From positions 1 through 57,878 of IMG/VR virus record IMGVR_UViG_3300033149_000867: 57,878 nucleotides of DNA. The stretch is one strand, 5' to 3'. Positions 5,380 through 53,384 of the stretch are shown here, in pieces. The number at the start of each line of letters is the position of its first letter. Within the stretch, counting starts at the first letter, position 1. Origin of the DNA: a virus. Its lineage: Duplodnaviria; Caudoviricetes. The position numbers and the translations under genes were made by a program. Below the pieces are notes generated by a model that saw nothing but the letters and a program-made list of their open reading frames with translations, searched no databases and had not been told where the DNA came from.

Positions 5380-5817
5380 TCACTTCAAAATACAATAAGT
5401 TTGTTCCACATATTCTTGAATTTTCATCTTTAAATCCATAATATCTTTTTCCCAATCTTCGGGCATTGGTAATTGCAAATTGTATTTTACACCAACACCC
5501 CCAAATACCAATGAAAAATCAACCCTTATATACTCACTAAATCGACCATCCATAAATTTCTTCGTTATCTTCAATTCATACTGATATATTGGTTCTGTTA
5601 ATACCACATCACTTATTGGTGATGCTCTACCAACCAATACTCCATACATTTTAATTTCATAATTCGACCTAAATGTTTTGTGTTCTTCATAATAATCAGA
5701 AAACTATTTCCACCAAAGGACAATTTCATCCATTAATTCACCAATTGTCTTATTTGTCCTTGCAAAATACAACATTTTTTCGTCATCTTTCAACCTACTG
5801 ATAACTTCTTCGCTCAT
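5380..5817 (-). CDS. Hypothetical protein with in-frame TAG at 5704-5706 (extends ORF 5380..5649)
   Basis: GGAGGTG SD then ATG at 5817; MSEEVISRL...LWWK*FSDYYEEH...MYGVLV is one frame. Confidence 0.7.
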
Positions 5818-5831
5818 CACACAACACCTCC

Positions 5832-6200
5832 TTAAACTCTTTCTATTGGCATAATTGGTAGTAATTCATCAAGTCTCTATTTCGTCCCCTCCAATAATCT
5901 TATAACACCATCATGTATTAGCAAATCATTTGTGTTTGAATAATAATACATCATAAATATTATTCTGTCCAAAATTAACCCAATCAAACTCAAAACATAT
6001 AAGTCATCATCTGACATTTTTTCAGACCAATATTTGCTCATCTACTTATTTCTAAATGTATATGAAATACGTTTCAATCTGACCACATCATTCATAATAT
6101 CTTCTTCATCAAGAAGTTTTGACAATTTACCCTCATTAACGTCTTTTTTAGACAAAATTTTTTCGAGTTTGTTAAGTAAATCTCTTATATTATTACTCAC
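5832..6200 (-). CDS. Hypothetical protein with two in-frame TAGs (6042-6044, 5877-5879)
   Basis: GGAGGTG SD, GTG start in a GTGA overlap with the upstream stop, ends TAA directly before the next SD; fills an otherwise empty gap. Confidence 0.7.
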
Positions 6201-6571
6201 CCACGACACCTCCTTTCATTTTCTCTTCCATTATCGATTACCTCCTCAACAAACTTACAAAATTCGAAACACTCTCCATCATATTTGTGAATTTCAAAAT
6301 CAATTTTAACTTCATCATCTTCATCGTAATTAACATCGTCAATTATTACTTTTTCGAATTTCTTTTCCCACAACAATTTGTTTCCTTCACCACATCTAAT
6401 GACAAGTCTATCTGGGTAAAAACGAACATAAGAATGAATTGGAAATTTATCTGTTTTAATCTTTGGGTAAATTTTTGAAATTAACATGTCCATTGCCTTA
6501 ATTAACAACTCCGATAATTTTTTACTCATCTTTATCACCAGAAGATTTCTCATAAAATTCTGAAATGACAT
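6197..6571 (-). CDS. Hypothetical protein, paralog of 3308..3640
   Basis: DRLVIRCGEGN and YDGECFEFCK; true start probably MSKKLSE. Confidence 0.75.
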   Translation of the reverse strand: MSFQNFMRNLLVIKMSKKLSELLIKAMDMLISKIYPKIKTDKFPIHSYVRFYPDRLVIRCGEGNKLLWEKKFEKVIIDDVNYDEDDEVKIDFEIHKYDGECFEFCKFVEEVIDNGRENERRCRG

Positions 6572-6746
6572 TTTCTGTCATAGCAATTAATTTTTCAATC
6601 TTGTTCTTTTCATTGAAATCCAACGAATTATCCTTAATCAAATGTTTGTATTTTATGTAATCTTTCAAAATCTCAATTCTTTCTTCCAATCGTTCAATTA
6701 ATTTCATATCAATTGCCATTTCAAACGACATACCAATACTACTCAT
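6522..6746 (-). CDS. Hypothetical protein
   Basis: ATGA overlap with the upstream ATPase gene. Confidence 0.7.
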   Translation of the reverse strand: MSSIGMSFEMAIDMKLIERLEERIEILKDYIKYKHLIKDNSLDFNEKNKIEKLIAMTENVISEFYEKSSGDKDE

Positions 6747-7543
6747 TTCTTCTTTGCACCACCTTCAAATTTTTCTTTCAATTTCTTAAATACATCGTTG
6801 AATGACCCATTGACAATTTCAAATTGCAAATCACCTATATAACGACATTTTTCAAGTCTTACCAATCTCTTTGTTCTATCGACCTTTTCAGCCCTCAATA
6901 CGACATCCACCCAATGCTCTGTGTCCTTTTGCCATCTACCAGTATAAATTCCGAGAGGCTCACCACTTGGACTGTATTTCTCTTGAACTCTTGCCGTCAA
7001 AACCAAATTCCAATCTGTTGATAATATTCTGTATAAATCTTTGAAATATCGACGATTTGCCTTGCCCCATTCTGTTCTCATTATTTGCCCAGACTTCGTA
7101 AATCTTTCAGCACCAATTTCTTCCAACCAAATACCAAGCCATGACCAAACATCCGTAATACTGTCAATCACAATTGTCCCTTTCTTTCCAGTCTCATTTG
7201 TATATTCAATTGCTCTACCAACTATTTCTCTCGTTGCTTCTTCAATTAATTCAACTGACTTAATAAAATCAATTTCATTTTCATGTAAAACTCTGACATC
7301 ACAAATGTAAATTTCTTTATCTTTGAATTTATATGCAACCTTATTTGCATTTCCTTCGGTATCAATCAAATAAATTGGTTCTGGGGCTGTCAAGGAGAAA
7401 TGTGTTTTCCCCGTGTCTGACAGCCCAAAAATACCAACTGACAATGTCTCAAATTTAAATTCTTTTGGTGATTTAAATTCAACTTTAATATTTGATGAAT
7501 TTTCTTTGTCAATTTTTTCACCCTTAAATTTTTTCCAAGTCAT
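6743..7543 (-). CDS. RecA-fold P-loop ATPase (AAA_24/Sak4-like recombination protein)
   Basis: Walker A GLSDTGKT, IDTEG, Walker B IVIDSIT, LVLTAR, KCR; next to an OB-fold SSB. Confidence 0.75.
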   Translation of the reverse strand: MTWKKFKGEKIDKENSSNIKVEFKSPKEFKFETLSVGIFGLSDTGKTHFSLTAPEPIYLIDTEGNANKVAYKFKDKEIYICDVRVLHENEIDFIKSVELIEEATREIVGRAIEYTNETGKKGTIVIDSITDVWSWLGIWLEEIGAERFTKSGQIMRTEWGKANRRYFKDLYRILSTDWNLVLTARVQEKYSPSGEPLGIYTGRWQKDTEHWVDVVLRAEKVDRTKRLVRLEKCRYIGDLQFEIVNGSFNDVFKKLKEKFEGGAKKK

Positions 7544-13709: not shown

Positions 13710-13892
13710 TTAAAATTTAACACCACAAATTTCTTCAAATCTCTTTGCAAATCTCTTTCTAAATTTTTCATATTTTGGTCGAATTCCATCATAAAAATTA
13801 CCATCACCAATTTCACAAATAATATTGTGTATTTCGTCCAATAATTTGTAATTTCTTTTGTAAAAGTTTTTATGTTCTAAAAACATTGTCAA
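13710..13892 (-). CDS. Small hypothetical protein, or -1 frame C-terminal extension of the E2-like gene
   Basis: Frame is open up to 13946; TTG start at 13892. Confidence 0.5.
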   Translation of the reverse strand: MTMFLEHKNFYKRNYKLLDEIHNIICEIGDGNFYDGIRPKYEKFRKRFAKRFEEICGVKF

Positions 13893-13927
13893 ATCATAAG
13901 TTCCATCTGTGTTTTCATAAATCCTCT

Positions 13928-14773
13928 CTAAAATGCCATTTTTAAATCACTAATAAACATCCAAAATTGATAGTCAATTTCATTAACAGATTTTCGAATT
14001 TCTACTTCAATTTCATTATCATCATCATAATTTTTAGTATAAATGCAATCACCCGAAAGCAACTTTGTTATAATGTAATCATAATTGAAAAATATAAAGA
14101 GCCTCTTTGCATCAGTAAAACCATCATACAAATTTGCATATTTCAATATTTCATGTATGCCATTTATCAATTCATTTGAATTTTTATAAACTCTGTTTTT
14201 TCCAAGACAAACCATATTGAAAATTAATGGTCTCCCATGTGAAAGTATATGATAATCATATATTTTATATTTTGGATAATAATACATATTTGCCTCAATA
14301 TTTGGATGAATTGAATATGAACAATATAATTCATCAAATTCATTTGGGATAAAAAACAAATCTCTGTAAAAACCGTATGTTTTATTTTTCTTCATTTCAA
14401 TCATTAATTCTGGTGATAAAAGTGTGAATTCTGGTCTATAAACATTTACATCCAAAACAATTGGCAAATAAATGGTATTTTCACTTGTAATTCCACATCT
14501 ACAAAAATAATTATATGGTCGGCTATTATTTATCATTACACCATCATATCTCAATAAATTCAAAGTGAAATTGTTGTTGCCAAGTGTGTTGAAAACATCA
14601 ATTTCATTAGAAAAAAATAATGACGATGAATAATCAATATTGTTATTGTTGTTATTGTTATTGTCATCACCAGCGTCATATACTCTATATACATATTTAT
14701 CTACCAATTCACGATAAATTCTTGTCATAATGTAGTTTTTATCTTGTGAATTTCTCATCAATTTACCATTCAA
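13928..14773 (-). CDS. Prokaryotic E2-like (ubiquitin-conjugating fold) protein
   Basis: HPNI ... VCLG ... ILKYANL pattern; operonic with JAB and ThiF/E1; TTG start at 14773 after GGAGGTGG; ends at a TAG that may be read through to 13889. Confidence 0.6.
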   Translation of the reverse strand: MNGKLMRNSQDKNYIMTRIYRELVDKYVYRVYDAGDDNNNNNNNNIDYSSSLFFSNEIDVFNTLGNNNFTLNLLRYDGVMINNSRPYNYFCRCGITSENTIYLPIVLDVNVYRPEFTLLSPELMIEMKKNKTYGFYRDLFFIPNEFDELYCSYSIHPNIEANMYYYPKYKIYDYHILSHGRPLIFNMVCLGKNRVYKNSNELINGIHEILKYANLYDGFTDAKRLFIFFNYDYIITKLLSGDCIYTKNYDDDNEIEVEIRKSVNEIDYQFWMFISDLKMAF

Positions 14774-15498
14774 AATACCACCTCCCATCTTTCCCAAAAT
14801 TCCTTAACATTTCCTTTCTTATTTTTGTCAAATTTACCCAAATATTGTCTGTAAGTCTCTTTCTCAATTTTTTCTTCAACGATTTTCTCATCAACCAAAT
14901 TCAATTTCATTGGTATTACTTTTATTTTGGGCTCAATCAACATGTAATTGTCTGATAGATTGTTATTTACAATTCCTTCTTCATCAAGAATTTCATCCAA
15001 GAAATCATTTAAACATTCACCATTTTCTCTTTCAAAACCCAATTTCAATGGTATTAATAGTGTTGCCATAACAAATTTATTATCTGTGTATAAAATTGAA
15101 CACATAAAGTTTTTATTAATGAATTCATAATCAGTTCTCGAAAATTCATTAAATCCATGTGGATGTTTATGAATAACGGTATTATAACCTTCTGTAATAT
15201 ATTCGGTCGTTTCGCTATTATCATATCGAATGGTTGATGAAGAAACTTTTTGTTTTGGAATTACATAATCATTGACATCTACAATGAAATTACCATCCTC
15301 ATTGTATTTTCCTTTTAACAAAATTGAAAATTCAAAATCTTCACCGACAATCGATGAAATTTCCTCCATAACATATCTAATTTTTCCACCAATTACGACC
15401 GTTGGTTCTATTATATTGTAAATATTGTTAATTAAATCATGACCCTAAAATTTCAAACTATTGTTATTCTTATTTTTACTCTTCTTCTTCTTCGTCAT
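14770..15498 (-). CDS. JAB/MPN+ metallo-isopeptidase with in-frame TAG at codon 18 (15445-15447)
   Basis: EFSILLKG...YVIPKQKVS...VIHKHP....FSRTD (E, HxH, S..D JAB motif); GGAGGT SD 8 nt before ATG 15498. Confidence 0.8.
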
Positions 15499-16837
15499 TT
15501 TCTAAAACCTCCTTGTTTAGATTGTAAATCCAAGAACCACATATTTTCTCAAATATTGTTGAAATATTGAAATTCACAACAAATTTTGGTAGAATTTCAT
15601 ATACATAAGAAAATCTAATAGTATCATCGATTTTATCAGCCATTGTGTTATAAAACACATCATCAATAATTGTTCTTATGAATGTGTAATCTAAAATCAC
15701 CAAATATGTTATTAAAAGAGCTGAAAACATTGCACCAAAAATCGATGAACCCTGTGTATAACCACGAATAACCCCATCATCAACCGTCATCATTGTATAA
15801 TCTTCAAAACCTCTTTGAATTGTTATGTTATGCCCATCATATCTCACCCTATAATATACGACATTGTATTCCTTAAATTTCTCTTTAAAATACTTCATTT
15901 CTTCATTGTTATTAGTAATTTCGTTGCTATCTCTACAATCAATCATAATCAACGGAGAACCCTTTGATTTGTAAAATTTATCACAAAGTAAATTATGTGC
16001 CGTTTCTTCAAATGTTCTGAAATTAAAACTAACTGCCAATTTTTTCAAATTTATATCTGGTCTAATAAGTTCAATTTTTCTTGAAATTGCAACAACCTTA
16101 CAATCATTTACATCATTCAAATCATAAATTGTTCTACCAACATTTGATATTTCAACATTATCACCATCAACCAAATACAAATTATTTGCACCAATTGATG
16201 CCAAAATGTATGAAACCCATGAACCAATCCCCCCACAACCAATAACCATAAAGCTCTCTGGAACTCTCATCTCAATTTCCTCATAATTTTCTTTTCTCAA
16301 CATTTTTTCAACCACATCAATGAACTTATCATAGTCATAACCAGCCGATATTGAACGTGCAATGCCGTCCAAACCCAATTCTGAAATATCTACATATTCT
16401 TCATTTTCCTCATAATTTCTATTGTCTGGTGTAATTGTATTTAGAATTTCATCCAAATCGCTTTCATTATCATCATTTACATTTCTCTCATTTCTATTTT
16501 TAAATATACCATCCATCAAAAACCCAATATATTCAACCTTAATACCTTTCATTCTATTTTTGTAAATTTGTTTGTAAAAATCCATCAAATATTCAACACC
16601 AGCTTCATTATAACTGTTAATTTCAACTTCAAGAACATCATCCAACGAATATGGGTATTTATTAACCGTGAGATATTCAACCTCACCATTACTCTTAATA
16701 ACCTTAACATAAGCATTATTCAATCCAATTCTTTTAGCAATTTTCTTCACATCTTCATGTTCAATTTTCTTCTTTTCTTCAAAATATCTTGCAATAAGTG
16801 AATAAGACTTTTTACCAACCTTTACTTCCAACCCCAC
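15476..16837 (-). CDS. Ubiquitin-like domain fused to a ThiF/E1-family adenylyltransferase
   Basis: GCGGIGSW, LVDGDNVEISNVGR, KV.A, IDCRD; the first ~80 aa have a beta-grasp-like pattern ending YNEAG. Confidence 0.8.
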   Translation of the reverse strand: MGLEVKVGKKSYSLIARYFEEKKKIEHEDVKKIAKRIGLNNAYVKVIKSNGEVEYLTVNKYPYSLDDVLEVEINSYNEAGVEYLMDFYKQIYKNRMKGIKVEYIGFLMDGIFKNRNERNVNDDNESDLDEILNTITPDNRNYEENEEYVDISELGLDGIARSISAGYDYDKFIDVVEKMLRKENYEEIEMRVPESFMVIGCGGIGSWVSYILASIGANNLYLVDGDNVEISNVGRTIYDLNDVNDCKVVAISRKIELIRPDINLKKLAVSFNFRTFEETAHNLLCDKFYKSKGSPLIMIDCRDSNEITNNNEEMKYFKEKFKEYNVVYYRVRYDGHNITIQRGFEDYTMMTVDDGVIRGYTQGSSIFGAMFSALLITYLVILDYTFIRTIIDDVFYNTMADKIDDTIRFSYVYEILPKFVVNFNISTIFEKICGSWIYNLNKEVLENDEEEEE

Positions 16838-36016: not shown

Positions 36017-36089
36017 TAATTAGTTGATAATATCATAAAATTCTAATATAACAGAACAACAGTTAATTTTATATTATATGAAAAAATAA

Positions 36090-37038: not shown

Positions 37039-37041
37039 AAT

Positions 37042-37428: not shown

Positions 37429-37434
37429 AAAGAT

Positions 37435-38385: not shown

Positions 38386-38402
38386 TGGGGGTGATTAATT
38401 AA

Positions 38403-38840
38403 ATGGCGTCAATTTATCCATTCATAAAAAAGTTGGCAACAACTCAAATACCAGTTGATATACAGTCTTTGTTGAAAGATATAAATACGACAACTCTCAT
38501 TGATGTCGCTTCGATAGACGCTGGTGGTAGTGCCGTAAGTTCATCAATTGACGTAAGTGGATACAGAAAGGCGACTTTGACTGTTAAAATTACATATGGT
38601 GATACTGCGACTGATGGCATAACCGTCAATTTATATACGTCGCCAGATGGAACAAATTTTGACACCGTCGCTTACTTTACATTTGACCCGAATTTCTCTG
38701 CTGGTGCAACTGTTCAGCAAACAAAGTTGGTTGATGGTCTGTTGGCAAAATACATAAAGGTCGAAGTTGTTAATAAAGACGGTGCAAATGGGCAAGGAAG
38801 TTGTAATGTCAAAATAAATTTGCCAACAGGTTTTGAGTAA
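38403..38840 (+). CDS. Small beta-sandwich virion protein
   Basis: SSSIDVSGY, YTSPDGTNF, KYIKVEV jelly-roll-like pattern. Confidence 0.55.
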   Translation: MASIYPFIKKLATTQIPVDIQSLLKDINTTTLIDVASIDAGGSAVSSSIDVSGYRKATLTVKITYGDTATDGITVNLYTSPDGTNFDTVAYFTFDPNFSAGATVQQTKLVDGLLAKYIKVEVVNKDGANGQGSCNVKINLPTGFE

Positions 38841-38851
38841 GGAGGTAATTT

Positions 38852-39517
38852 ATGACGTGGAATAAAGTCCCACTACCAGACAAATGCGTTGAACTTATTG
38901 GAGGCTATATAAACACAAATCAAGACGTAAATTTCACATCGGATGAATTCACAATAATGGTAAGGTGTGCGTTTGAAGACCCATTCCACAACAACTTCCA
39001 AAACATTATTTATAAATCAGACAACGCATGGAAACTCTCTTATGTTTATGGCAGACCATACGCATTGATGAAAAATAGTGATGGGCAAACATTCGCAAAT
39101 TATTTGACAACTGAAATAAATTTCCAAACGGAAGACACGGGCGACATCGGAAAATGGCATTGGTTCTCCGTTGTTTATGATGGCGAGTGCATGACTGGTT
39201 ATTATAATAACGAAGTTATGAATGTGGTGATAACAGCAAGTGGGACACCAGCTTTAATTTCTAACAATGTTTTGGTTGGGAAATACGGCACGACTGATTA
39301 TGTCTTTATTGGCAAAGTTTCAGATGTCTTCATTGTTGATAGGGCAATTAGTGTGAGTGAATTAAATAAAATTATTTATTATGAGACAGAACCTTATGAT
39401 ACGTTAATTTCACTTAAAAACGAAGATATTACAGCTGATGGTTGGAGAGATGCCACATTTGTTGGTAATGCTATACCAAAACAAAGAAATAGTAGTGGCA
39501 TCTATGTTGAATTATAA
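38852..39517 (+). CDS. LamG/concanavalin-like virion protein
   Basis: FTIMVR, WHWFSVVYDG, F.GKVSDVFIVDRA. Confidence 0.7.
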   Translation: MTWNKVPLPDKCVELIGGYINTNQDVNFTSDEFTIMVRCAFEDPFHNNFQNIIYKSDNAWKLSYVYGRPYALMKNSDGQTFANYLTTEINFQTEDTGDIGKWHWFSVVYDGECMTGYYNNEVMNVVITASGTPALISNNVLVGKYGTTDYVFIGKVSDVFIVDRAISVSELNKIIYYETEPYDTLISLKNEDITADGWRDATFVGNAIPKQRNSSGIYVEL

Positions 39518-39529
39518 GGGTGATTAAAG

Positions 39530-41470: not shown

Positions 41471-41513
41471 GTATGAATAAATTTAAATAATTAAAAATAA
41501 TAAGAATTGAGAG

Positions 41514-43391
41514 GTGATGTTGATGGCAAAACTTTCAAAAAATAGGTTTTATGTTGGTGATGGTGGATTTAATTTAACGGCGAATATTGGTGTTAATTTG
41601 TCAAATTATGGTGATGACCTTGATGCAAAATTTGTAATAAAAAGTAGATATGGTGGCGGACTAATTCAATATAGTTGTAGCAATTGTTCAATAACGGATT
41701 ATAATAATGGCGTCATTACAATAACTTTGCCTTCATTATTTTTTGCGACATCTGGGCATTTTGATGGCTTCATCATAATTTACGATAGTAGTGGCGAACA
41801 ACTTACAACAATTGAACTTGGCGATATTTACGTTGGCGAAAAAATAACTGGGGTTTCGAATTTCGACGATGAAACTGTTTATCACCCATCTGTGGCAAAT
41901 GTCGTAATTCAAAAAGTTGATAATCTTGTTTTAGCGAAGAAATATGATGAGACGACAAATACATGGACTTTGGTTGATAGTGGTGTTGCTGGGCAAGATG
42001 ACAACGACGTCTTTGATTATGTTTTTGACAATTACAATGGTTTGATTTTCATAAAAGGTGGCACATATACGGAGCTTTCTGGTTTGACACCTCAATCAAA
42101 TTCGATAATAGTGGGCGAAGGTGTTGATAAGACAATTCTTGATTTCGCCGATGAAAGCGACTTTTTATTGTATAATCCAGATATAACATTCCGTGATTTT
42201 ACAATTGAAGGGCGATTTTTCATAAATAACAGTAGAATGAAATTTTATAATATCAAAAATACTTGCGATGAAACGAGATTGGGTGCATTTACAATTTGGA
42301 CAACCAATGACAACATAATTGAAGATATAGTTTTCATGAATTGTTATGCACACGAATGTGGCACGTTTGGATTTTATAATACTGGTGATGGTGATGTCAG
42401 AGAAATACGAAATGTGAGGTATATAGATTGCCATGCATATAAGTGTGGTTATTCAACTCGTTTTTCAGATTGGATTGTTGGGTTTGATGTCGCTGAATAT
42501 CTTACTGCGATTGAAGATTGTGTTTTGATTGGTTGTAGTGCGAATTATTCGTGGGAAAGTGGATTTCATTTAGAAGATGCACCAAATAAAACAAATGTAA
42601 TGTTTTTAGGTTGTATTTCTGAATATAATGGTCAAAAACCAAGTGCAAATTACGGTGCTGGTTTCTTGGTTTCAAGTGGTGTTTCATTATATAATTGTCA
42701 AACAAAAGGAAATGCAGTTGCTGGTATCAGATTTAACAACAATAAAGAGAGTTGCCCACTAATTATAAGCGATTGTAAGGACGAAGGAAGTTATATATCA
42801 TTACATGGTTGGGGCAACCCATCATCTGGTGAAGTTTTCATAAAGAATTTCACATCTGTAAGTTCGACTTATTTGGCAGTTGAACTTCTTTCGACAAACA
42901 ATATATTTGTTGATGGTCTCAATATAATTGACCCAGCTGGTGATGGTGATATTTGCACGTTGTTTGGCAACGCAACATATCCAATTGACAATTGTAGAGT
43001 AAGAGGATTAAATGCAATCGGCGGACAAAGTCCAAAGGTAATTTATACGGCTTCGTCAAATAATTTGTATTTCGAAGGTTATATTAACACTTCACAAACA
43101 TATCCATTTTATAACGATGGAAGCACAAATGTAGAAGTTGAATTAAGTGGTTCTTATATTTCCAAAAACAACGGCGTTTTGACGACAGATGGTGATGGTG
43201 TCAAAGAACAATTTGAAATAACACATGGACTGTCATCAACCCCATCGATAATAAATGTTTGGAAAGAAATTGACAATTTACCAGACATAGATTATATAAC
43301 TGCCGATGCAACTAAAATTTACGTCAATTTTGTTTCAGCACCAGCGAATGGAAGTGATAATGTTAAATTGGGTTGGTATGCTCATATATGA
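41514..43391 (+). CDS. Tail spike/fibre with right-handed beta-helix (pectin-lyase-like) domain
   Basis: IFIKGGTY, IVGEG.DKTIL, repeated Cys/Asn ladder, C-terminal ITHGL..TP. Confidence 0.75.
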   Translation: MMLMAKLSKNRFYVGDGGFNLTANIGVNLSNYGDDLDAKFVIKSRYGGGLIQYSCSNCSITDYNNGVITITLPSLFFATSGHFDGFIIIYDSSGEQLTTIELGDIYVGEKITGVSNFDDETVYHPSVANVVIQKVDNLVLAKKYDETTNTWTLVDSGVAGQDDNDVFDYVFDNYNGLIFIKGGTYTELSGLTPQSNSIIVGEGVDKTILDFADESDFLLYNPDITFRDFTIEGRFFINNSRMKFYNIKNTCDETRLGAFTIWTTNDNIIEDIVFMNCYAHECGTFGFYNTGDGDVREIRNVRYIDCHAYKCGYSTRFSDWIVGFDVAEYLTAIEDCVLIGCSANYSWESGFHLEDAPNKTNVMFLGCISEYNGQKPSANYGAGFLVSSGVSLYNCQTKGNAVAGIRFNNNKESCPLIISDCKDEGSYISLHGWGNPSSGEVFIKNFTSVSSTYLAVELLSTNNIFVDGLNIIDPAGDGDICTLFGNATYPIDNCRVRGLNAIGGQSPKVIYTASSNNLYFEGYINTSQTYPFYNDGSTNVEVELSGSYISKNNGVLTTDGDGVKEQFEITHGLSSTPSIINVWKEIDNLPDIDYITADATKIYVNFVSAPANGSDNVKLGWYAHI

Positions 43392-43475
43392 TTTATTTAT
43401 TCAAAACATTTAAATAAGTTAAATTTTTTAATAATTAATTAGCTACACACCTCGATGTGTCTCTTGGAGGCATAA

Positions 43476-43853
43476 ATGAGAGGCTGTGATTATAATTTGT
43501 CGGAGGTTTGTGCGATGGAAGGAGATATGGTTGAAATAAAGTTGGACGAAAATAGAATTGTTAAGATTAAGTTGCCAAAGGGTCAAATTGGTATAAAACA
43601 TGCGATTTTGTCTGCAAAATTATCTTCATTGCTTGTTGATATTGGGGATGTTGGTGAAGAAATTGTTATACCACCAGAAATATTTGATAAAATTGAGCCG
43701 ATTTTAGATAGATGGGTTGAAGAGGTTTTACCAAATATTTTAGTCGATTGTAAAATTGACGACCTCTATGGTGAAGACATCCTAAATATATTTACGGAAC
43801 TCGTTAGGATATCGGGTGAGAGACAGCAATACTTTCAAACATCTCGTGGATGA
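43476..43853 (+). CDS. Tail assembly chaperone (gpG-like); true start probably MVEIKL
   Basis: Position before tape measure; overlaps next ORF in the +1 frame. Confidence 0.6.
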   Translation: MRGCDYNLSEVCAMEGDMVEIKLDENRIVKIKLPKGQIGIKHAILSAKLSSLLVDIGDVGEEIVIPPEIFDKIEPILDRWVEEVLPNILVDCKIDDLYGEDILNIFTELVRISGERQQYFQTSRG

Positions 43854-44049
43854 ATTTGAGGAATTATCTATGATGGTTGCATATGTTAGTAAGGAATGTG
43901 GAATTAGACCATCAGAAATAGTTGAATTTGACGAAGATACATATTGGTTTGATAAATTATTTTATGATTTCAACATAATGTTAAAATATGAAGAAAGAAT
44001 TAATAAGGAGATTGATAAGAAATGCCACTCAATAAACAAGCGATATTAA
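43816..44049 (+). CDS. Tail assembly chaperone C-terminal part (gpT-like)
   Basis: G.RPSE...F.FD pattern typical of these chaperones; directly precedes the tape measure gene. Confidence 0.6.
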   Translation: MRDSNTFKHLVDEFEELSMMVAYVSKECGIRPSEIVEFDEDTYWFDKLFYDFNIMLKYEERINKEIDKKCHSINKRY

Positions 44050-45872
44050 GGTTGAAATTTGTATTAGAAAATTTGAAGAGCCTTGATGCCATTAAGGGCA
44101 AATTAGCGGAGGTGAAAACCTCTGCCATTTCAACTTCATCTGGTTTTGAAAAATTGCGTGGTGTTGGTAGAGGTGTTGCGGAAAGTTTTGGTTTTATAAC
44201 GCCCGAAATTATTGCTGTTAATCAACGTTATGCAATGCAAATTGAAGAAATTAAAAGTCGCCATGCCAAATTAAGGGAAAGTGCAGTTGAACTTTCACAT
44301 AAATATGCGTTGTTAAAAAGAACAATTAGAGAAGAACAAAAACAACTTTCTGCTTACCCAGATATTGTATCAGATATTGAAATGCATAAAAGACAACTAT
44401 ATAGTGTAAGAACAGAATTGGCAAAAATAACACCGCAATATAAAACATATACTCATTTGGTCAAAAATACAACGGAAATTGAAAAGAGAGCGACACAAGA
44501 GAAGCGAAGGCAAGTTTTCACAACGAGATATTGGGGGTCTGTGTTCGAAAATTGGCTTGGGAAAATACATGGGCGACAAGAGGAACTGTCTAAAATTGAA
44601 GATAGGAGAGAGAGGCAAACAAGAGCCTTGACATATGCTTCCATGAGGCTCGGTAAGGCACAACAGTTCCTCGTTTCGGCACAGATGTCCTTGCTTGGCG
44701 TGTTCTTCTCACTATTCTCTGCTTTCTTCTTCTTACGAACTGGTTTTACTTCGTTAATTTCGCCAATTACTGATTTAGATACGGCTATTAATTCACTTGT
44801 TCTTGGATTTATATTTGGCGATGAAAATACAAAGAAATTGGCATCTTCAATACTTGGTCTTGGTAAAGACACAGATGATACGGAAAAGAAAACAAATAAA
44901 TTAATCGACGCATGGAAAACGTGGCAAAGTATAACGGCAACAGCAAAAGTCGTCTCACTCTCTATTGCAGTTGGAATTTTGGGCGATGAAGAAGTTAAAC
45001 AAAAATTAGGTGAAATAAAAACCAAATTGATTGAAATTGCTGGTGATGAAGAAACACGCAATGCTGTTAAAAATCTATTTTTGACAATGCTTAATATGTT
45101 GCAAGAATTGTTGAAAAATTTGCCAAGTATAATAAATTGGTTTAATTCGATGCTCGGAATTTTGCAACCAATTTTGGGAACTGTTGTCAAATTATCAATA
45201 TTTGCCATGATATTTATGATACCACTTGCCATAATTGGGATGTTAGTAAATCAAATTATAATTTTGATAGGTGTTCTTGGTAAATTACTATTGTGGCTAA
45301 CTGGTGCTGATAACAGATTAGTCAAATTTTTGGCAAAGACAAAGGAAACTGGTCTTTTAACTATTGCAATGAATAAACTCAAAGAAGCAATTAAAGGGGT
45401 AGGTTTAGCATCAAAGTTGTTTAGTCCATACACCCTCATATTGACGGGTCTAATTATATTATTTGCAATTCTATACAAAAAGAGCGACAAATTCAGAGAG
45501 GTCATTCAAAAAATAGTTAATAAATTCAAGGAATTTGGCAAAACTATTAAAGAACACTTACCATTCCTTAATTTACTTGGTTCAATCTTTGGTGTCGCTG
45601 GTGGTGTTTTCAAGGGCATAATTGGTAAAGGTGTTGGTGAGGCATTCATAGGTGGTAATATTGGCGAAGCGATTGACAAAAAGTTGCAAAATGAAATTGG
45701 TAAGAGAACAATAACAGAAATTGGTGGTGGTGGAAATGTTAATCAACAGTCTTCACAAATTATCAACGAAACAATAATAATGCATAATGACATAGATAAT
45801 ATTCATGATATTGATGAATTAACAAATACATTAACAAAATCTGTTAGATATAGGAGTAGTGATGCCGTATGA
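44022..45872 (+). CDS. Tape measure protein
   Basis: Long helical protein with hydrophobic segments and LYKKSDKFRE motif. Confidence 0.85.
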   Translation: MPLNKQAILRLKFVLENLKSLDAIKGKLAEVKTSAISTSSGFEKLRGVGRGVAESFGFITPEIIAVNQRYAMQIEEIKSRHAKLRESAVELSHKYALLKRTIREEQKQLSAYPDIVSDIEMHKRQLYSVRTELAKITPQYKTYTHLVKNTTEIEKRATQEKRRQVFTTRYWGSVFENWLGKIHGRQEELSKIEDRRERQTRALTYASMRLGKAQQFLVSAQMSLLGVFFSLFSAFFFLRTGFTSLISPITDLDTAINSLVLGFIFGDENTKKLASSILGLGKDTDDTEKKTNKLIDAWKTWQSITATAKVVSLSIAVGILGDEEVKQKLGEIKTKLIEIAGDEETRNAVKNLFLTMLNMLQELLKNLPSIINWFNSMLGILQPILGTVVKLSIFAMIFMIPLAIIGMLVNQIIILIGVLGKLLLWLTGADNRLVKFLAKTKETGLLTIAMNKLKEAIKGVGLASKLFSPYTLILTGLIILFAILYKKSDKFREVIQKIVNKFKEFGKTIKEHLPFLNLLGSIFGVAGGVFKGIIGKGVGEAFIGGNIGEAIDKKLQNEIGKRTITEIGGGGNVNQQSSQIINETIIMHNDIDNIHDIDELTNTLTKSVRYRSSDAV

Positions 45873-46252
45873 CGACAACTTTCTATAAATATGATGATGA
45901 AACTGTATATGTTGAAGTGAAATTGAAGAGGGCGAGAATAACGAGGCAGTTCGCCGTCTCGAATTTCCCACGTTTTAATTTGCCACCACTCTCATATCCA
46001 AGAGGTATGGAACGTGAATATTATGATTTGTCATTTTCAATCACAAATATTGATGATTTAAATAAAATTTATGAAATTTTCAAATACGGCACAAATATGG
46101 TTTATTTGTCAAGCGACGACGATATAATACCAGAACAAACAAAACAACCATTTGTTATTGAACGATTTTATGTTGAACAACGTGGTGGGCAATACAATAT
46201 TTGGGAAGTTTCAACGACAATTTTGAGAGCTTGGGAGGTGGTTGAAGAATAA
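45869..46252 (+). CDS. Distal tail (Dit)-like protein
   Basis: Position after tape measure, beta-rich. Confidence 0.55.
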   Translation: MTTTFYKYDDETVYVEVKLKRARITRQFAVSNFPRFNLPPLSYPRGMEREYYDLSFSITNIDDLNKIYEIFKYGTNMVYLSSDDDIIPEQTKQPFVIERFYVEQRGGQYNIWEVSTTILRAWEVVEE

Positions 46253-49200
46253 TGACGTTGCGTTATCATATTCTTGATGGCGACACTTACAAATATCTTG
46301 GCGAAGCTCTCAACTTCAAATATAGCAGAGGACTTGGCAAACTTGAACTTTGCACTTTCACAACATATAAAATACCAGAGTTGAAAGTTGGCAATGACGT
46401 CAATATTGTGATTTCAGACGACAAATACAATTGGTATGAATTGATGAGTGGATATATTCAAAAAATAACCGAAAAAGATGATTTGTATAGTGTTGAAGTT
46501 GTTGCCAAAACAATAGATTTAAAAAATGAAATGTTTAGACAGTCGCAATACATACTTTTGGACTTTGAAGATTATACAGAAGGCGAAACGCCTGATAAGA
46601 CTGATGGTAATTGGGATTTAAGTTCAACAACATTATCAGATGCAATTGATGTAAGAATTAAATCAAATTTATCGTTTAGTGATGTTGGCAAAAATACGCT
46701 GTTATTCAAAGATTTAGACACAAACGATAATTATTATGTTGAATATTCACATGGTGTTGAAGAGGTTTTGAAAGGGGTAATTTCGTTTGGTGTCTATATC
46801 GCACAGCTACATGAAATTTCAACTGATGTTGCAGTCCATTATTTTTCAGTTGATTTTGGGTCATCTGGGACTGGTCTCACATTTTCGTTTAGGAAAAACG
46901 CAACTACTTATGATGTTGAAATGAAAATAGAAAGTGGGGCGACATCATCTGGTTGGATAACTATTTACGATATGTCATCAACTGGGTATTCTATTGGTAA
47001 ATTTTTCAATATAACAGCATATTTCGATTATAATAACGATAGTTTGGCAGTTTATGTTAATGGCGAAAAAATATATGAAAATTCATCATTTTCATTTGAT
47101 GTTGGTGGGTCTTCAAAACTGATATTTGGTTCTGCAACATCTTATATTAGTGTATTCCTCTATGATAATATTGTTGTATATGATTTAACGGAACATATTT
47201 CAAACCCGTCCTCTAATTATATAAGGACAAAACCACTATTCAATCAAGAGACCGCAGACCGTCTTCTTTACTATCTTGGTTATGATGGGTGGTCATATTA
47301 TGGAAATGAAGATTTGTTTGACGATTATGCAATTAATATTTCGACAACTAACAATTCGAAATATTTTATGACTTCAAAAATTTTGAGAGGTTGCGTTGGT
47401 ATAAAACATTACAAATATGATAGTTTTAACAAAATTTTATATGTTGGCAAAGCCCAAGATGACACAACATTAAAATTACAATTGAAATTCAACGAAGGCG
47501 ATGGAACAACGGCATATGACGGCTCTAATTATAATAACGATGGAACGATAAATGGTGCAAAATGGGTCGAAGGTAAATATGGTTGGGCATTGGAATTCGA
47601 CGGAACTAATGATTATGTTGTTGTTTCAGATGATAGTAGTCTTGATATTACGGACGCTCTTACGATTTCGGCTTGGTTAAGACCAACTGACATAACAACA
47701 AATGCAACTTACACTATTTTGAGAAAAGACGAAAGTTATCGCATTTCTTTCCAAAATAACGGACAAACTCTTTCATTTGGTTTGTGGGATAGTGGTGGAA
47801 CTTTAAACGAACTTGATGTTTCTATTGACAGCGAAGAAATTGTCGATGGTAGATGGCATTTAGTGGTTGCGACTTACGACGGTTCATTTATGAAGTTATA
47901 TTTAGATGGCAAATTAATTGGATATAAAGAAGATATTTTTTCGATACAATCAACTGCAAACGACTTGTATATCGGTAGTAATGGTGGGTCATCCGAATTT
48001 TACAAAGGTTATATGGACGAAATACGAATTTACGCAAAGACATTTGACGAAGATATGGTCAGCGACTTGTATAAATTTGGTGAATACTATTTGACTGTCG
48101 ATTATGATGAAGACTATTGTAAAATTGGCGAAACAAATGGTTTGATGACTGTAAATGAAAAAAGAAAGGTTTTGAGTAGTGATGAACAATATAACAAAAT
48201 CACAATAACTGGTTATAATAAATCGAGGTTGCCAATATCGGCAAGTGCTGGTGAGGGCAAACCCGAAAAAACATTTTATTATGAGGAAATAGCAACAAAG
48301 AGTGAATTAGAGAAGTTGGCTGATGAAGTCCTCAATTACTACAAGAAACAAAGTGGTTATGAGGTTGAGGGAACATTTTACTGCTATGACCACACAAAAA
48401 GACCAAAGAAACTGCTACTCGAAACTACATCAAACATCGAACTCATCCAAAGCACTTACCCCATCACACTCCACACCAAGTTAATCCCCCTTGCCCAACC
48501 ATGTTCTCTCTTTACTGTGTATAATTCATATAATTTATCAATAGAAAATAACAAAATCGTATTCAGATATTACGACGGCTCAAATGTAAATGTCGTCCAA
48601 TCCGATGACATATCTTCATTAATAAATAAAAACGAACCAATTTCAATAACTTTGATGATTAGTGAAAATAAAGAAATTTCAGTTTATGTTGATAAAGTCG
48701 AAGTTATTAACTTTACGGCATCAACTATGCAAAAGATAACGAACTCTGATATATATTATGGATATATGTTGTTCCCAACAGTTGGGTCAATAGCAACCCA
48801 TCAATTTTTATATGAACTTTACATTTCAACTGACGTAAATAAAGATTTGTTGCCAAGAATATTTGATGGCGACTATCCAATGAGAAATGCGGTTGTTTTA
48901 CTAACTCCATATACAGTTGATAAAACAGATGAAATTTGGTATAATGCACTTTATCAGCGACCATATGTGTTTGGTTTGGTTGCCGATTTGCATATTGGTC
49001 AAAGTAATGGATATTATGATTACAATAAAAAATTGTCAAGAAAAATGTTGCTTGGCAAAACCGACTACAATATTTATTTAGGCGACTTATTTGAAGATAC
49101 AACTGACGATAGAAATGACTTCATAAATACATTCAAAAATTTGGAGGCAAAAGAACAGATATTTGTTTGGGGCAACCACGATTATGGCGATGGCACTAAT

Positions 49201-50700
49201 TATACAACTCACAAAACAAAACTTGAAAATAATGGCTTCAACGCAACACAACCTTATCTTTTACAGTTCAATGATAACAGATGGTTTGACTTGACAAATG
49301 TCTATGAAATTGTTGATTATGACACGGAAAATTACATTGGCGTTGAATTTGATGGTTCTGAACGTTATGACTTTACAAACAACGAAACATATTATACATT
49401 TACAAACAAATTAACAATTGAGACAACCGTTGTTCCAGATGATATTACAAATATAACTGGTATTGTCCAAAAAGTTTTGAATTTTGGATTGGACTTTAAA
49501 GACGGCGTTTTGAGATTTAGCATTTATGACCAATCATCAAATTCACATGTGTTAGAAAGCGATGAAAATGTTTTTGAAGTTGGTAAAAAATACGACATAA
49601 AATGCATTTATGAAGACCAAAAATTAAAGATGTATATAAATGGTTCGTTGCACAAAGAAATGGATTTACCAAACGACATTTATATACCAGACAATACAGA
49701 GACAATATATGTTGGGTCTGCTGGTTCATCTGGAAGTGCGTATTTCAAAGGCAAAATCTACAAACTCATAGTCAAAAACAAAAATGACGAAATTGTCTTA
49801 AATCTTGATAAAAATTCGGCGTCTAATTATAATTGGTATGATATTTCGCCGATAAGAAACCATCCGACCAAAAACGGCTCACCGTCCATCTCACAATACA
49901 ACAAAGCCTATTTGATAAATGGAACATCCGATTACATTCAAATTGAAGACCCACAAAATTACGAAAATGACTTCACAATTGAATTGATGTTTAAGTTGCA
50001 CAGTATTACTGGTTCTGATGTGATTGCGTGGTGTTCTGCGTCTGATTACACAAATAAAAGGTGGTATTTGGCAACACGTTTGAATAGATTAGCATTTTAC
50101 ATTTATGAAGATGATGCAACAGCTCATATGATAGTTGGCAACCAAACACTTGAAACTGACAAAATTTACAAAGTTCATCTTGTTAGAAAAGGAACAAAAG
50201 CTTATATTTACATAAATGGCGAACTTGACAACGAAATTGATTTGTATAATTTGTTTTCACTAAACAGCTCATCCACCTCTTACATTTATATTGGTAGTGA
50301 AATTGGCGTCGCACCAGCCGACATGACATTCTATTCACTTAAAATTTTCCCATATGGATTTACTGAAAACCAAGTAAGATATTCGCAATTTGCTTCGCTA
50401 TTGAACCCAGTTGTTGATTTGAGTGAATATGATGTGCATGACAACTACATGATAGATAATGCAAAACAGGTGAAGATTTCAAATATAACGGGTGGTGTTC
50501 AAGTCGTCGATGGCGACAACATCAAAATTGATGGCATCAACACAGTTAGAGAGGCAACCCATGTAAGATTTAACAAACAAATCTATCCAATTGACAAAAT
50601 TGAATATGAAAGTAATAAGAATTCGATAAAATATTGGTTTGACACAAAGAAAGTTGAAATAGGCGAAATCTTCCTATCGATGTTAAAAGAAATAGAGTGA
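46252..50700 (+). CDS. Tail tip/hub protein with about five inserted LamG-like domains and the N-terminal half of a metallophosphoesterase
   Basis: Hub segments (MSGYIQKI, YNKITITG...LEKLADEVL) interleaved with LamG repeats; ADLH, LGDLFE, WGNHD at about 48961-49285. Confidence 0.8.
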   Translation: MTLRYHILDGDTYKYLGEALNFKYSRGLGKLELCTFTTYKIPELKVGNDVNIVISDDKYNWYELMSGYIQKITEKDDLYSVEVVAKTIDLKNEMFRQSQYILLDFEDYTEGETPDKTDGNWDLSSTTLSDAIDVRIKSNLSFSDVGKNTLLFKDLDTNDNYYVEYSHGVEEVLKGVISFGVYIAQLHEISTDVAVHYFSVDFGSSGTGLTFSFRKNATTYDVEMKIESGATSSGWITIYDMSSTGYSIGKFFNITAYFDYNNDSLAVYVNGEKIYENSSFSFDVGGSSKLIFGSATSYISVFLYDNIVVYDLTEHISNPSSNYIRTKPLFNQETADRLLYYLGYDGWSYYGNEDLFDDYAINISTTNNSKYFMTSKILRGCVGIKHYKYDSFNKILYVGKAQDDTTLKLQLKFNEGDGTTAYDGSNYNNDGTINGAKWVEGKYGWALEFDGTNDYVVVSDDSSLDITDALTISAWLRPTDITTNATYTILRKDESYRISFQNNGQTLSFGLWDSGGTLNELDVSIDSEEIVDGRWHLVVATYDGSFMKLYLDGKLIGYKEDIFSIQSTANDLYIGSNGGSSEFYKGYMDEIRIYAKTFDEDMVSDLYKFGEYYLTVDYDEDYCKIGETNGLMTVNEKRKVLSSDEQYNKITITGYNKSRLPISASAGEGKPEKTFYYEEIATKSELEKLADEVLNYYKKQSGYEVEGTFYCYDHTKRPKKLLLETTSNIELIQSTYPITLHTKLIPLAQPCSLFTVYNSYNLSIENNKIVFRYYDGSNVNVVQSDDISSLINKNEPISITLMISENKEISVYVDKVEVINFTASTMQKITNSDIYYGYMLFPTVGSIATHQFLYELYISTDVNKDLLPRIFDGDYPMRNAVVLLTPYTVDKTDEIWYNALYQRPYVFGLVADLHIGQSNGYYDYNKKLSRKMLLGKTDYNIYLGDLFEDTTDDRNDFINTFKNLEAKEQIFVWGNHDYGDGTNYTTHKTKLENNGFNATQPYLLQFNDNRWFDLTNVYEIVDYDTENYIGVEFDGSERYDFTNNETYYTFTNKLTIETTVVPDDITNITGIVQKVLNFGLDFKDGVLRFSIYDQSSNSHVLESDENVFEVGKKYDIKCIYEDQKLKMYINGSLHKEMDLPNDIYIPDNTETIYVGSAGSSGSAYFKGKIYKLIVKNKNDEIVLNLDKNSASNYNWYDISPIRNHPTKNGSPSISQYNKAYLINGTSDYIQIEDPQNYENDFTIELMFKLHSITGSDVIAWCSASDYTNKRWYLATRLNRLAFYIYEDDATAHMIVGNQTLETDKIYKVHLVRKGTKAYIYINGELDNEIDLYNLFSLNSSSTSYIYIGSEIGVAPADMTFYSLKIFPYGFTENQVRYSQFASLLNPVVDLSEYDVHDNYMIDNAKQVKISNITGGVQVVDGDNIKIDGINTVREATHVRFNKQIYPIDKIEYESNKNSIKYWFDTKKVEIGEIFLSMLKEIE

Positions 50701-52040: not shown

Positions 52041-52226
52041 TTGGTGATTTGTATGGTCGATGAAAACCCACTTTGGTTGCCAAAAGGAAGTGTTCGTAGC
52101 ATAATAGCATTGTCGTTGGTATTTACGACTTGTTATCTTGTGGTTTTCGTTGGTGATATACCAGAGGCTTTACTCGGTCTCGTTGGTGCTGTAATTGGTT
52201 TTTATTTCAAGGTGAGAGAGGGGTGA
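52041..52226 (+). CDS. Small two-TM holin-like protein
   Basis: PLWLPKGSVRSIIAL...VIGFYF. Confidence 0.65.
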   Translation: MVICMVDENPLWLPKGSVRSIIALSLVFTTCYLVVFVGDIPEALLGLVGAVIGFYFKVREG

Positions 52227-52229
52227 TGT

Positions 52230-52499
52230 GTGTTGTTAGAAAGTATTGAAAAAAGAGTTGAAGAACTTGAAGAAAAATATGAAGAAATAACAAATCGGAT
52301 TTTTGGTTTTGAAAAACAAATTTTAAGTCAGTTTGGTTCATTGTCTGCAAAAATTGACGTCCTTTCGGAAAAAGTTGAACAAATAAATAAAACACAAGAA
52401 AATTCACTTAATAGAACTTGGGCAATCGTAATGACAATTCTCACAGCAATGTTGTCCTTTTCATTTGGAGTAATAATAAGTTTCTTTTTTGTAAAATAA
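52230..52499 (+). CDS. Coiled-coil protein with C-terminal TM (holin/XhlA-like)
   Basis: Heptads followed by a hydrophobic tail. Confidence 0.65.
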   Translation: MLLESIEKRVEELEEKYEEITNRIFGFEKQILSQFGSLSAKIDVLSEKVEQINKTQENSLNRTWAIVMTILTAMLSFSFGVIISFFFVK

Positions 52500-52680
52500 A
52501 ATTAAAAATTATTTTTTGGAATGTGAGTGTGAAAGAAGACACATTAACTCACTTTCAATACTATCTCTCATATAACCCCATGAAATTTTCCCTTCTTTCC
52601 AAAATTCAATTAACATTGTAATTCTACCAAGAAAATAAGATATTCGTTGTTGTTCTTCACCTTCCAAATAAATCACCACC

Positions 52681-53115
52681 TCAACTTGAACTTGTCGAAT
52701 TTGAAGTAATAGATGTTTCAATATATGGTGCAATCATGAACATTCCTTCGACCCCATCTATCTCAATTCCATATATGTCGTTTGTATAATATTTCAATAG
52801 AAGTTTCACATCTTTATTTTCATAATCTATGTCAAGTATTTCCAAAATTCTGATAATATCGTTGTAATTTAACAACCTTTTTGTTGTGTTTTTTGCAATT
52901 GCGATGAATTCACCAATGAACTCCTTTGGCAACACCATATAACATTCGAATACAATACCCAATGTATATAGGTTGTCATCTCTATCAAAGTCTTCTCTTG
53001 TTGTATAGAAAATTGTTCTTCTAACACCATTGCCAATGCAATTTTCCAACATACCATTTAATTTGACCCAACCATTGTCAAATAACTTTTGTTCAACTTC
53101 TTCTTTCTTCATCAT
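52681..53115 (-). CDS. Hypothetical protein, C-terminus weakly sliding-clamp-like
   Basis: Ends GMFMIAPYIE; SD GAGGTGG. Confidence 0.6.
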   Translation of the reverse strand: MMKKEEVEQKLFDNGWVKLNGMLENCIGNGVRRTIFYTTREDFDRDDNLYTLGIVFECYMVLPKEFIGEFIAIAKNTTKRLLNYNDIIRILEILDIDYENKDVKLLLKYYTNDIYGIEIDGVEGMFMIAPYIETSITSNSTSSS

Positions 53116-53384
53116 AAATTACCACCTCTTTTTCTGAAAACCATATCATCTGGAAGTTTTGCAATGCATTGAAATATCTAAATTTTTTCATCTTCATTGG
53201 CATATTTATACATCCGTAGCAAATACATCAAATTAGAGATATGTTTCCCAACATAATTTAACAATTTACTATCACGAATTTCTAATTTTTCTTCGATAAA
53301 GGCGTCATTTGACATCAATATCAAAGAACATTCTGAAATTGCATTTAAAATATCATCAATACTGTATTTATTCACTTTCACCAT
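53112..53384 (-). CDS. Hypothetical protein with in-frame TAG at 53178-53180
   Basis: Read-through adds IFQCIAKLPDDMVFRKRGGNL and ends in an ATGA overlap with the 53115 start. Confidence 0.7.

Follow-up and report, generated by a model that had tools for sequence, protein, structure and literature searches.

A virus genome held as IMG/VR record IMGVR_UViG_3300033149_000867 (57,878 bp, linear and, according to CheckV, about 67% complete) very probably uses TAG as a sense codon throughout, with TAA and TGA as its sole terminators. Across this sequence, which was analysed over its full length and is referred to below as the window, TAG never serves as a terminator, and eight TAG triplets, one of them doubtful, appear to be translated within seven genes. 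What reads the codon is a more tentative matter: we infer decoding supplied by the host, a pyrrolysine residue and a methanogenic host, and the account that we favour, with some hesitation, is that a methanogen with constitutive tRNA(Pyl) and pyrrolysyl-tRNA synthetase (PylRS) already decodes UAG and that this is the whole mechanism.

Stop codons and the sequence that follows TAG

A mechanical gene call under the standard code gave 92 open reading frames (ORFs), ending in TAA (51), TGA (35) or TAG (6). All six TAG-ended ORFs were among the cases listed by a first-pass annotation of the window, which had proposed that the virus infects an archaeon and reads TAG as sense, and the eight positions that it gave (5704, 5877, 6042, 13928, 15445, 22044, 26055 and 53178) were each found to be CTA on the plus strand and TAG on the minus, coding strand. 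With TAG taken as sense, curation left 84 genes, compared with about 70 in the first count, one of which runs off the window; the other 83 stops are TAA (43) or TGA (40), and TAG ends none of them, as had been claimed. Within these genes, across 18,211 codons, the in-frame stops are eight TAGs (in seven genes), no TAA and no TGA.

For comparison, TAG made up 18.8% of the stops in 85 viral loci of at least 8 kb related through the terminase large subunit (TerL), and 13.0% in the 18 loci with a GC content below 0.37; given shares of 13–19%, the probability of finding no TAG among 83 stops is about 1e-5 or less. The kind of interruption is also unusual, as the codon usage of the window leads one to expect single-base nonsense mutations to give TAA in 45–48% of cases, TAG in 31% and TGA in 21–24%, so that eight of eight being TAG has a probability of 0.31^8, or about 9e-5. 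A C-to-T artefact would be expected at CAA (269 codons) more than at CAG (62), and no frameshift-type breaks were noticed among the genes of the window. The further claim, that no gene is broken in the same way by TAA or TGA, was borne out when the frames beyond these stops were inspected. At least 30 open codons follow the stop in 13 of the 76 TAA- or TGA-ended genes, but in 10 of these a start codon lies 0–2 codons past the stop, in most cases with a GGAGG-type Shine–Dalgarno (SD) sequence, and they are therefore ordinary coupled neighbours. Of the remaining three, that at 27804 enters a T-rich spacer, and those at 7540 and 56537 are chance open frames over the next gene. Overall, the open frame extends for 12–79 codons after a TAG, compared with a median of 5–6 after TAA or TGA (Mann–Whitney p = 0.006).

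The TAGs are unevenly distributed, with all eight in the replication-side module (P = 0.016) and six in genes of 150 residues or fewer (Fisher p = 0.0075), whereas the 21-kb structural block at 29288–50700 has TAG neither in frame nor as a stop. This fits the earlier description of the TAGs as confined to accessory or early genes, and the curated gene list likewise shows the type-B DNA polymerase (PolB), the ribonucleotide reductase (RNR) and all virion genes to be free of TAG. An ‘MCM-like’ gene named in the same description could not be traced: the large proteins encoded at 7540–8808 and 16858–18102 have no match in Pfam, PHROGs or NCBIfam.

To judge the sequence beyond the TAGs, a codon model was trained on 20 long minus-strand genes and tested on 20 small genes outside the training set. 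The seven segments running from a TAG to the next start or stop (140 codons) scored +0.385 per codon, compared with 0.384 for the small genes, while 13 true intergenic gaps scored negative; frame 0 was the best frame in six of the seven segments, the exception being that after 13928. As these segments are stop-free by construction, they were compared with control runs that are also stop-free, and outscored both 82 intergenic runs (Mann–Whitney p = 4e-4) and 95 wrong-frame runs (p = 1e-5), whereas they did not differ from in-frame windows (p = 0.71).

The architecture around the TAGs points the same way. The extended genes end in junctions with their neighbours, GTGA at 25941–25944, ATGA at 53112–53115, TTGA at 13889–13892 and, at 5832, a TAA abutting the GGAGGTG of the next gene. 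The coupling expected by the first-pass annotation was thus seen, but the accompanying gain in coding density came to just 0.86% of the window. All of the upstream starts of the TAG-bearing genes have SD cores of 5–8 nt; by comparison, an SD core of at least 4 nt is found at 55 of the 83 genes and at none of the four downstream restart candidates. No SD sequence that could serve a restart precedes any of the eight TAGs, and the next in-frame start lies 8–25 codons past the TAG, except for the TAG-ATG at 6042, where the ATG also lacks an SD sequence. On these grounds restart downstream of the TAGs seems unlikely. The codon model, the SD pattern, the homologues, paralogue and fold model described below, and the stop census agree that the TAGs are translated inside genes.

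Genes that carry an in-frame TAG

The clearest single case is the gene at 14770–15498 (Table 1), which is predicted from its motif and fold to encode a JAMM/MPN metalloprotease. Its start, ATG 15498, lies 17 codons before the TAG and 8 nt behind AAGGAGGT, within the end of the neighbouring ThiF/E1-like gene, the 3' end of which therefore carries the SD sequence of the JAMM gene and overlaps its start. The SD core is 8 nt at ATG 15498, whereas there is none at ATG 15369, the next possible start; the 25 codons between TAG 15445 and that position include no ATG, GTG or TTG. The JAMM motif HxHx7SxxD is seen in the translation as HKHPHGFNEFSRTD, and residues E56, H110, H112, S120 and D123 are invariant in alignments.

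Seventeen homologues of this protein were found, and all nine that were aligned extend N-terminally beyond the position of ATG 15369: each has about 45 or more residues ahead of the conserved EFSIL strand, which ATG 15369 of the window precedes by just 12 residues. A hidden Markov model built from the homologues only gave the protein 118.5 bits when it was begun at M44 and 127.9 when it was begun right behind the TAG, so that the 25 codons after the TAG add 9.4 bits. In an AlphaFold2 (AF2) model based on 19 sequences, a strand (residues 33–37) and a helix (38–51) are predicted with a per-residue confidence (pLDDT) of 84–95, which puts codon 44 within helix 1 of the MPN domain. Foldseek matched the model to Rpn11, AMSH, CSN5 and PfJAMM1 with a probability of 1.00; the Pfam Prok-JAB match of the protein is weak (E 0.16), and Pfam and PHROGs gave nothing significant for any of the seven read-through proteins. 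Together with the adenylyltransferase gene (Pfam ThiF 2.4e-17, and an NCBIfam match), the JAMM gene suggests a virus-borne module for conjugation and deconjugation of a ubiquitin-like protein at 14770–16837 on the minus strand. A ThiF-JAB-ThiF neighbourhood is also present at 8855–11199 of a 201-kb IMG/VR contig (L002), the sole locus given by a scan with the JAB alignment.

The second case with a comparison to hand is the gene at 21804–22235, adjacent to an uninterrupted paralogue of 124 residues. The part after the TAG is homologous to the paralogue (E 5e-9; 0/2000 shuffles), with an alignment that begins at the second residue past the TAG, and the part before it is collinear with the paralogue's N-terminus, weakly (110/2000 shuffles), with a common M-KMI--F motif. 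The 13 codons from TAG 22044 to the next ATG, at 22004, score 0.64 per codon, and this ATG has no SD sequence. Searches for homologues of 21804–22235 and of 5380–5820 returned nothing beyond the window's own fragment. Alignment at the TAGs thus supported continuity of the protein, for the JAMM gene and the paralogue pair; the other result expected from it, a residue opposite the TAG, did not emerge, as neither alignment has a conserved column there.

For the small gene at 25941–26213, the 37 codons after the TAG average 0.20, and frame 0 outscores the other frames. An AF2 model of the read-through product from its single sequence (pLDDT 80.3, pTM 0.68) combines a single long strand and a helix with a meander of four strands; codon 53, the TAG, falls inside the strand at 51–57, which leaves three of the five strands at or beyond the TAG. 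Five AF2 replicas ranged in pLDDT from 58 to 80, and the model is therefore taken as support rather than proof. A Foldseek search with it gave no match at E ≤ 0.001; among the weak PDB matches the top one was AcrID1 of SIRV3, an anti-CRISPR protein of an archaeal virus (E 7.6e-3, TM 0.44), and ORF99 of AFV1 was also listed.

Three further TAG-bearing genes gave coding scores of the same kind. In that at 5380–5820, the 18 codons from the TAG to ATG 5649 score 0.45 per codon and the 38 codons before the TAG 0.38; ATG 5649 has no SD sequence, whereas the upstream start has one of 8 nt. The gene at 5832–6209 consists of three pieces that are all coding in one frame (0.39, 0.27 and 0.71 per codon), although among the long cases we are least sure of read-through at TAG 6042, immediately followed by an ATG without an SD sequence. 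In the gene at 53112–53384, the 21 codons after the TAG score 0.40 per codon, again with frame 0 best.

TAG 13928 is the doubtful member of the set. The first-pass annotation had left it ambiguous between sense and stop, and it remains so, as the codons that follow average just 0.03 and are outscored by those of frame +2. The gene (13889–14797) has no family match in Pfam or PHROGs; its 302-residue product contains a run of eight asparagines (DDNNNNNNNNID, at 14600–14680 on the minus strand), as AT-rich genomes of mesophiles typically show. A further TAG (56987), possibly the ninth in frame, would lie in an N-terminal extension of the gene at 56786–56959; its flanks are short, both starts lack an SD sequence and the codon scores around it favour neither start.

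One test of stop function gave little information. A Category 4 TAG in the manner of Kivenson et al. is one whose reading as sense would create an out-of-frame overlap of more than 60 nt, and the single automatic call appears from its coordinates to be an overlap with a 51-residue antisense ORF (25903–26058, plus strand) that we judged to be spurious, leaving no TAG in this category. The test is weak, as just 19–24% of stops in related loci give such overlaps and the probability of 0/8 is about 0.17.

Table 1. Positions of the TAG-bearing genes and of the main blocks of the window (SD, Shine–Dalgarno sequence).
Feature	Coordinates	Strand	Remarks
JAMM/JAB (MPN) metalloprotease gene (predicted)	14770..15498	-	in-frame TAG 15445-15447 is codon 18; downstream of the ThiF/E1-like gene
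ThiF/E1-like adenylyltransferase gene	15476..16837	-	Pfam ThiF; NCBIfam
ORFan with TAG 22044-22046	21804..22235	-	likely start ATG 22220, preceded by GGAGG
Uninterrupted 124-residue paralogue of 21804-22235	22205..22579	-	reference architecture
90-codon ORFan with TAG 26055-26057	25941..26213	-	TGA end overlaps GTG of next gene (GTGA); 7-nt SD at start
146-codon ORFan with TAG 5704-5706	5380..5820	-	start GTG 5820 or ATG 5817, behind AAGGAGGT
125-codon ORFan with TAGs 6042-6044 and 5877-5879	5832..6209	-	TAA end directly precedes SD of next gene
90-codon ORFan with TAG 53178-53180	53112..53384	-	TGA end overlaps next ATG (ATGA); 6-nt SD
302-codon gene with TAG 13928-13930 (ambiguous)	13889..14797	-	TAG 12 codons before TGA that overlaps next start (TTGA)
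Possible ninth TAG	56987..56989	-	in N-terminal extension (ATG 57022) of 56786-56959
Minus-strand block	1 to ~28.6 kb	-	PolB, AAA_24 ATPase, class II RNR, PAPS-reductase-like, ThyA-like, ThiF/E1-like, JAMM, many small ORFans
Structural and packaging module	29288..50700	+	TerL, portal, protease/scaffold with ChaB domain, HK97-type capsid, tail tube, tape measure, lectin-rich fibres
Third block	from 50.9 kb	mostly -	methylases, ERCC4+HhH nuclease, PD-(D/E)XK nuclease

Possible sources of TAG decoding

In the account that we favour, the host would be a methanogenic archaeon in which constitutive tRNA(Pyl) and PylRS read every UAG as pyrrolysine (‘Genetic Code 34’). A virus in such a cell would lose TAG as a stop, because TAG would not terminate there, and sporadic TAG mutations would then be tolerated in fast-evolving, dispensable genes. 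In line with decoding native to the host, no tRNA was found in the window and the TAGs are sparse and at tolerant sites, as they are in Code 34 archaea of ‘Group C’ and in ‘Ca. Methanomethylophilus alvus’. If this is right, and here we are a shade more cautious still, the virus would be the first found with pyrrolysine-containing proteins, a tailed archaeal virus on the Code 34 of a methylotrophic methanogen host.

Archaea that use Code 34, in which all TAGs are read as pyrrolysine, are described by Kivenson et al. (bioRxiv 10.1101/2024.09.30.615893), with Group C found in eight methanogen genera. On that description the window resembles them in that TAG is absent as a terminator, a few internal TAGs occur in ordinary genes and there is no large out-of-frame overlap; the share of genes with a TAG, 7/84 here, is typically 5% or less in Group C, with 13% in one genome. 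The differences from the archaea described there are that this is a virus, that the window has neither pyl genes nor a tRNA, and that just one or two of its genes pass the ‘Category 1’ homology test. In its main text that preprint uses neither ‘virus’ nor ‘viral’. ‘Ca. M. alvus’, as reported by Borrel et al. (2014, PMC4153887), has TAG at 1.6% of its stops and scattered in-frame TAGs in genes other than methyltransferases, explained in that report as mutations tolerated under constitutive suppression. The window is similar in both respects, rare TAG stops and scattered in-frame TAGs, but ‘Ca. M. alvus’ as characterised there is a cellular genome with pylTSBCD, and no link between the two was found. 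The nearest viral parallel is with smacoviruses assigned to Methanomassiliicoccales, in which the amber stop ends 4.25% of 188 coding sequences (Diez-Villasenor & Rodriguez-Valera 2019, PMC6336856). As there, stop usage of the virus would mirror that of a pyrrolysine-decoding host, the host in our case being conjectural; those viruses, by that account, have 2.5-kb ssDNA genomes and show depletion of TAG stops only, a depletion that served to link them to those archaea, whereas the present one is a tailed dsDNA virus of at least 58 kb with TAG inside its genes.

The genes of the window suggest that the virus is probably one of an archaeon. The ThyA-like protein (12184–12894, minus strand) has as its best NCBIfam match TIGR03283, thy_syn_methano (5.8e-21, 74.9 bits, compared with 26 bits for the generic Pfam ThyA model), a model that passes its own cut-off in 2 of 14 control genomes; the protein could be a clue to the host or a nucleotide-modifying enzyme. 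The best NCBIfam matches of the ERCC4+HhH nuclease are Hef and archaeal Xpf, and its top PDB match is XPF of Aeropyrum. PolB matches the NCBIfam type-B polymerase models PRK05761 and PRK05762, which we take to be archaeal-type.

Several observations weigh against a pyrrolysine-decoding archaeal host, or against translation of the TAGs more generally. The contig lacks about a third of the genome. The archaeal markers all fall below their curated cut-offs (74.9 against 174.55 bits for the ThyA-like protein, and likewise for Hef/Xpf), one of the JAB homologues is named from an Ignavibacteria metagenome-assembled genome (MAG), and a TerL relative with 40% identity, on a contig of 6 kb, comes from a MAG that is labelled a PVC-group bacterium. 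Another, of about 28–29%, is in a Thermoplasmata MAG that has no PylS above cut-off, and when a sample of 401 genomes of that MAG's class was searched, TerL gave only the MAG's own match and the ThyA-like protein none. Comparison of 20 kb of window DNA with the same 401 genomes returned weak RNR-like and AT-rich matches, none of them spacer-like. No host was identified, and no pyrrolysine machinery was seen in the window, the large unassigned proteins of which have no NCBIfam match. Neither alignment lets the residue at the TAG be read: the JAMM column is a variable linker, and TAG 22044 falls in an insertion of the paralogue alignment. Five of the seven TAG-bearing genes are ORFans and, because they have no homologues, the case for read-through in them is made by statistics, SD logic and the one single-sequence AF2 model, for which the replica range given above is a caution. 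Of the original proposal of an archaeal virus in a pyrrolysine-decoding host, then, amber decoding is well supported, while the archaeal affinity draws on sub-threshold matches beside which there are matches to bacterially labelled MAGs; the suggestion that the amber codons act as a host-state-dependent switch is speculative.

The trait is also not common to the known kin of the virus. A scan with a TerL alignment recovered 80 IMG/VR loci, 80 metagenome loci and two genome loci, the closest of which have TerL identities of 49–53% and GC contents of 48–52%, and the best share the structural module only. These closest relatives use TAG stops freely, and in three of them (L003, L004 and L093, from IMG/VR and JGI contigs; 49–50% identity) both TerL and portal genes end in TAG, whereas the orthologues in the window end in TGA. 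The loss of TAG is thus specific to this lineage. Scans of IMG/VR with single proteins (7540–8808, TerL and RNR) gave no match, and in 50,697 GenBank phage records the major capsid protein and portal had no tblastn match and TerL reached about 24% identity at most. A group of distant TerL relatives (L069–L075) was considered as possibly TAG-recoded, as treating TAG as sense raises their coding density, and was dropped since their TerL genes are intact.

The most serious alternative to decoding by the host, though a rather unlikely one, is that the virus has a standard-code host, bacterial or archaeal, and resembles the code 15 phages, with an amber suppressor tRNA for glutamine or another standard residue supplied by a co-resident element or from the missing third of its genome. 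Such a tRNA could lie in that third, as the linear contig is just about 67% complete. The route proposed by Borges et al. (bioRxiv 10.1101/2021.08.26.457843) has low-GC phages lose TAG or TGA stops, gain suppressor tRNAs and then acquire in-frame stops, and the window matches it in its low GC (31%) and zero TAG stops; reading of TAG as glutamine has been validated by metaproteomics in crAss-like phages, as reported in PMC9523058. Like the crAss-like, Lak, Garnet and related phages presented as code 15 in the Borges preprint, this is a low-GC virus with TAG gone as a stop and present in frame. The absence of a suppressor tRNA, claimed in the first-pass annotation, was confirmed within the 57.9-kb window, where ARAGORN found no tRNA and Rfam no match at its gathering score or even at E ≤ 1, but the claim does not extend to the whole genome. 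In other respects the resemblance is poor. Recoded phage clades with standard-code hosts are described in that preprint as having suppressor tRNAs, TAG in 26–71% of genes and a large gain in coding density, with recoding enriched in late, structural and lysis genes and the early genes kept standard; here 7/84 genes (8%) have a TAG, all eight TAGs are on the replication side with no late gene and none of the 21-kb structural block affected, the gain is the 0.86% given above, and nothing like a tRNA was matched in 57.9 kb.

Two accounts in which TAG keeps its standard meaning seem improbable. In the first, TAG is an ordinary stop, and the cases described here are short genes followed by an in-frame gene or open spacer, together with accessory genes recently inactivated by amber mutations. 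Six TAG stops in 92 would in itself be unremarkable for a genome of 31% GC, the lack of homologues for five of the seven genes is compatible with such an account, the TAG-ATG at 6042 could be a stop followed by restart, the extensions are short at 5877 (14 codons) and 13928 (12 codons), and the category test has low power. However, coding-like sequence continues in the same frame past each of the TAG-ended ORFs, open frames are longer after TAG than after TAA or TGA, the restart sites have no SD sequence, and a JAMM protein begun downstream would be without strand 1 and half of helix 1 of its domain; decay, moreover, predicts mainly TAA, with some TGA and frameshifts, rather than eight TAGs of eight. 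Leaky termination is a known viral device, and in the second account near-cognate tRNAs of a standard-code host would let a minority of ribosomes through, giving short and long isoforms as a control of dosage or timing, and low output might be tolerable in small accessory genes such as these; but in at least two cases the short product would be of no use (a lysine-rich peptide of 17 residues for JAMM, and a fragment without three of the five strands for 25941–26213), there is no common read-through context because the base next to the TAG varies among the eight sites (T, A, A, A, G, G, C, A), and the absence of TAG-ended genes would be left unexplained.

If the TAGs are read as pyrrolysine by the host, the matching of virus and host codes would extend to the archaeal pyrrolysine code. 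TAG recoding in viruses and the pyrrolysine code of archaea are both known, and the novelty lies in a virus in which the two may coincide; viral stop-codon recoding is known from bacteriophages as dense, driven by tRNAs and concentrated in late genes, and the sparse, early-gene pattern seen here differs from it and is also new. Among 3708 archaeal virus genomes surveyed in 2026 (PMC13465236), none was reported to have a non-standard code by a criterion of a gain in coding density above 5–10%, which this genome, with a gain of just 0.86%, would not reach. No report of an in-frame TAG in an archaeal virus was found among the articles searched. Sparse recoding would thus be shown to be invisible to current screens based on coding density, and zero TAG stops with sparse in-frame TAGs would offer a simple signature for assigning viruses to pyrrolysine-decoding hosts. 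Under table 11, seven genes of this record are wrongly annotated as if they were split or truncated, among them the JAMM partner of the viral E1-like enzyme.

Other features of the window

The coding strands are strongly purine-loaded. A conserved promoter-like motif, WTATAATTAGGGCG, occurs in about seven copies in the gaps that precede minus-strand gene clusters, 40–50 nt upstream of start codons, among them the gaps at 13515–13709, 20941–21046, 23389–23470 and 26214–26620; TTAGGGC is found seven times in gaps, compared with eight on the entire strand. The motif may be an archaeal TATA box or a bacterial -10 element. The PAPS-reductase-like gene ends in a TGA with a strong SD sequence (AAGGAGG) right behind it, followed by TTG and an open frame of 31–33 codons (11278–11377, minus strand), which may be an unannotated small gene in the 217-nt gap ahead of the RNR gene.

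Besides 21804–22235 and 22205–22579, several small early genes on the minus strand (within 19940–23154 and 3308–6571) form local paralogue pairs: 22681–23154 with 20497–20940 (36% over 137 residues), 20220–20522 with 19940–20287, and 6197–6571 with 3308–3640. Relaxed BLAST inside the window gave no additional paralogues. The protein encoded at 18565–19119 (minus strand) has a weak NCBIfam match to the CRISPR-associated Csx20 (E 6.3e-5, 23 bits; cut-off 70).

The PolB gene (1–3351, minus strand) contains an intein with a LAGLIDADG homing endonuclease at residues ~507–899, and exits at the start of the window, so that its C-terminus is missing. In the structural module, the tail or fibre protein of 1482 residues (46252–50700, plus strand) combines a calcineurin-like phosphoesterase domain with at least three lectin domains of the ConA-like type (Laminin_G_3), and shares a lectin domain, at 37% identity, with a 646-residue protein encoded at 39530–41470 on the same strand.

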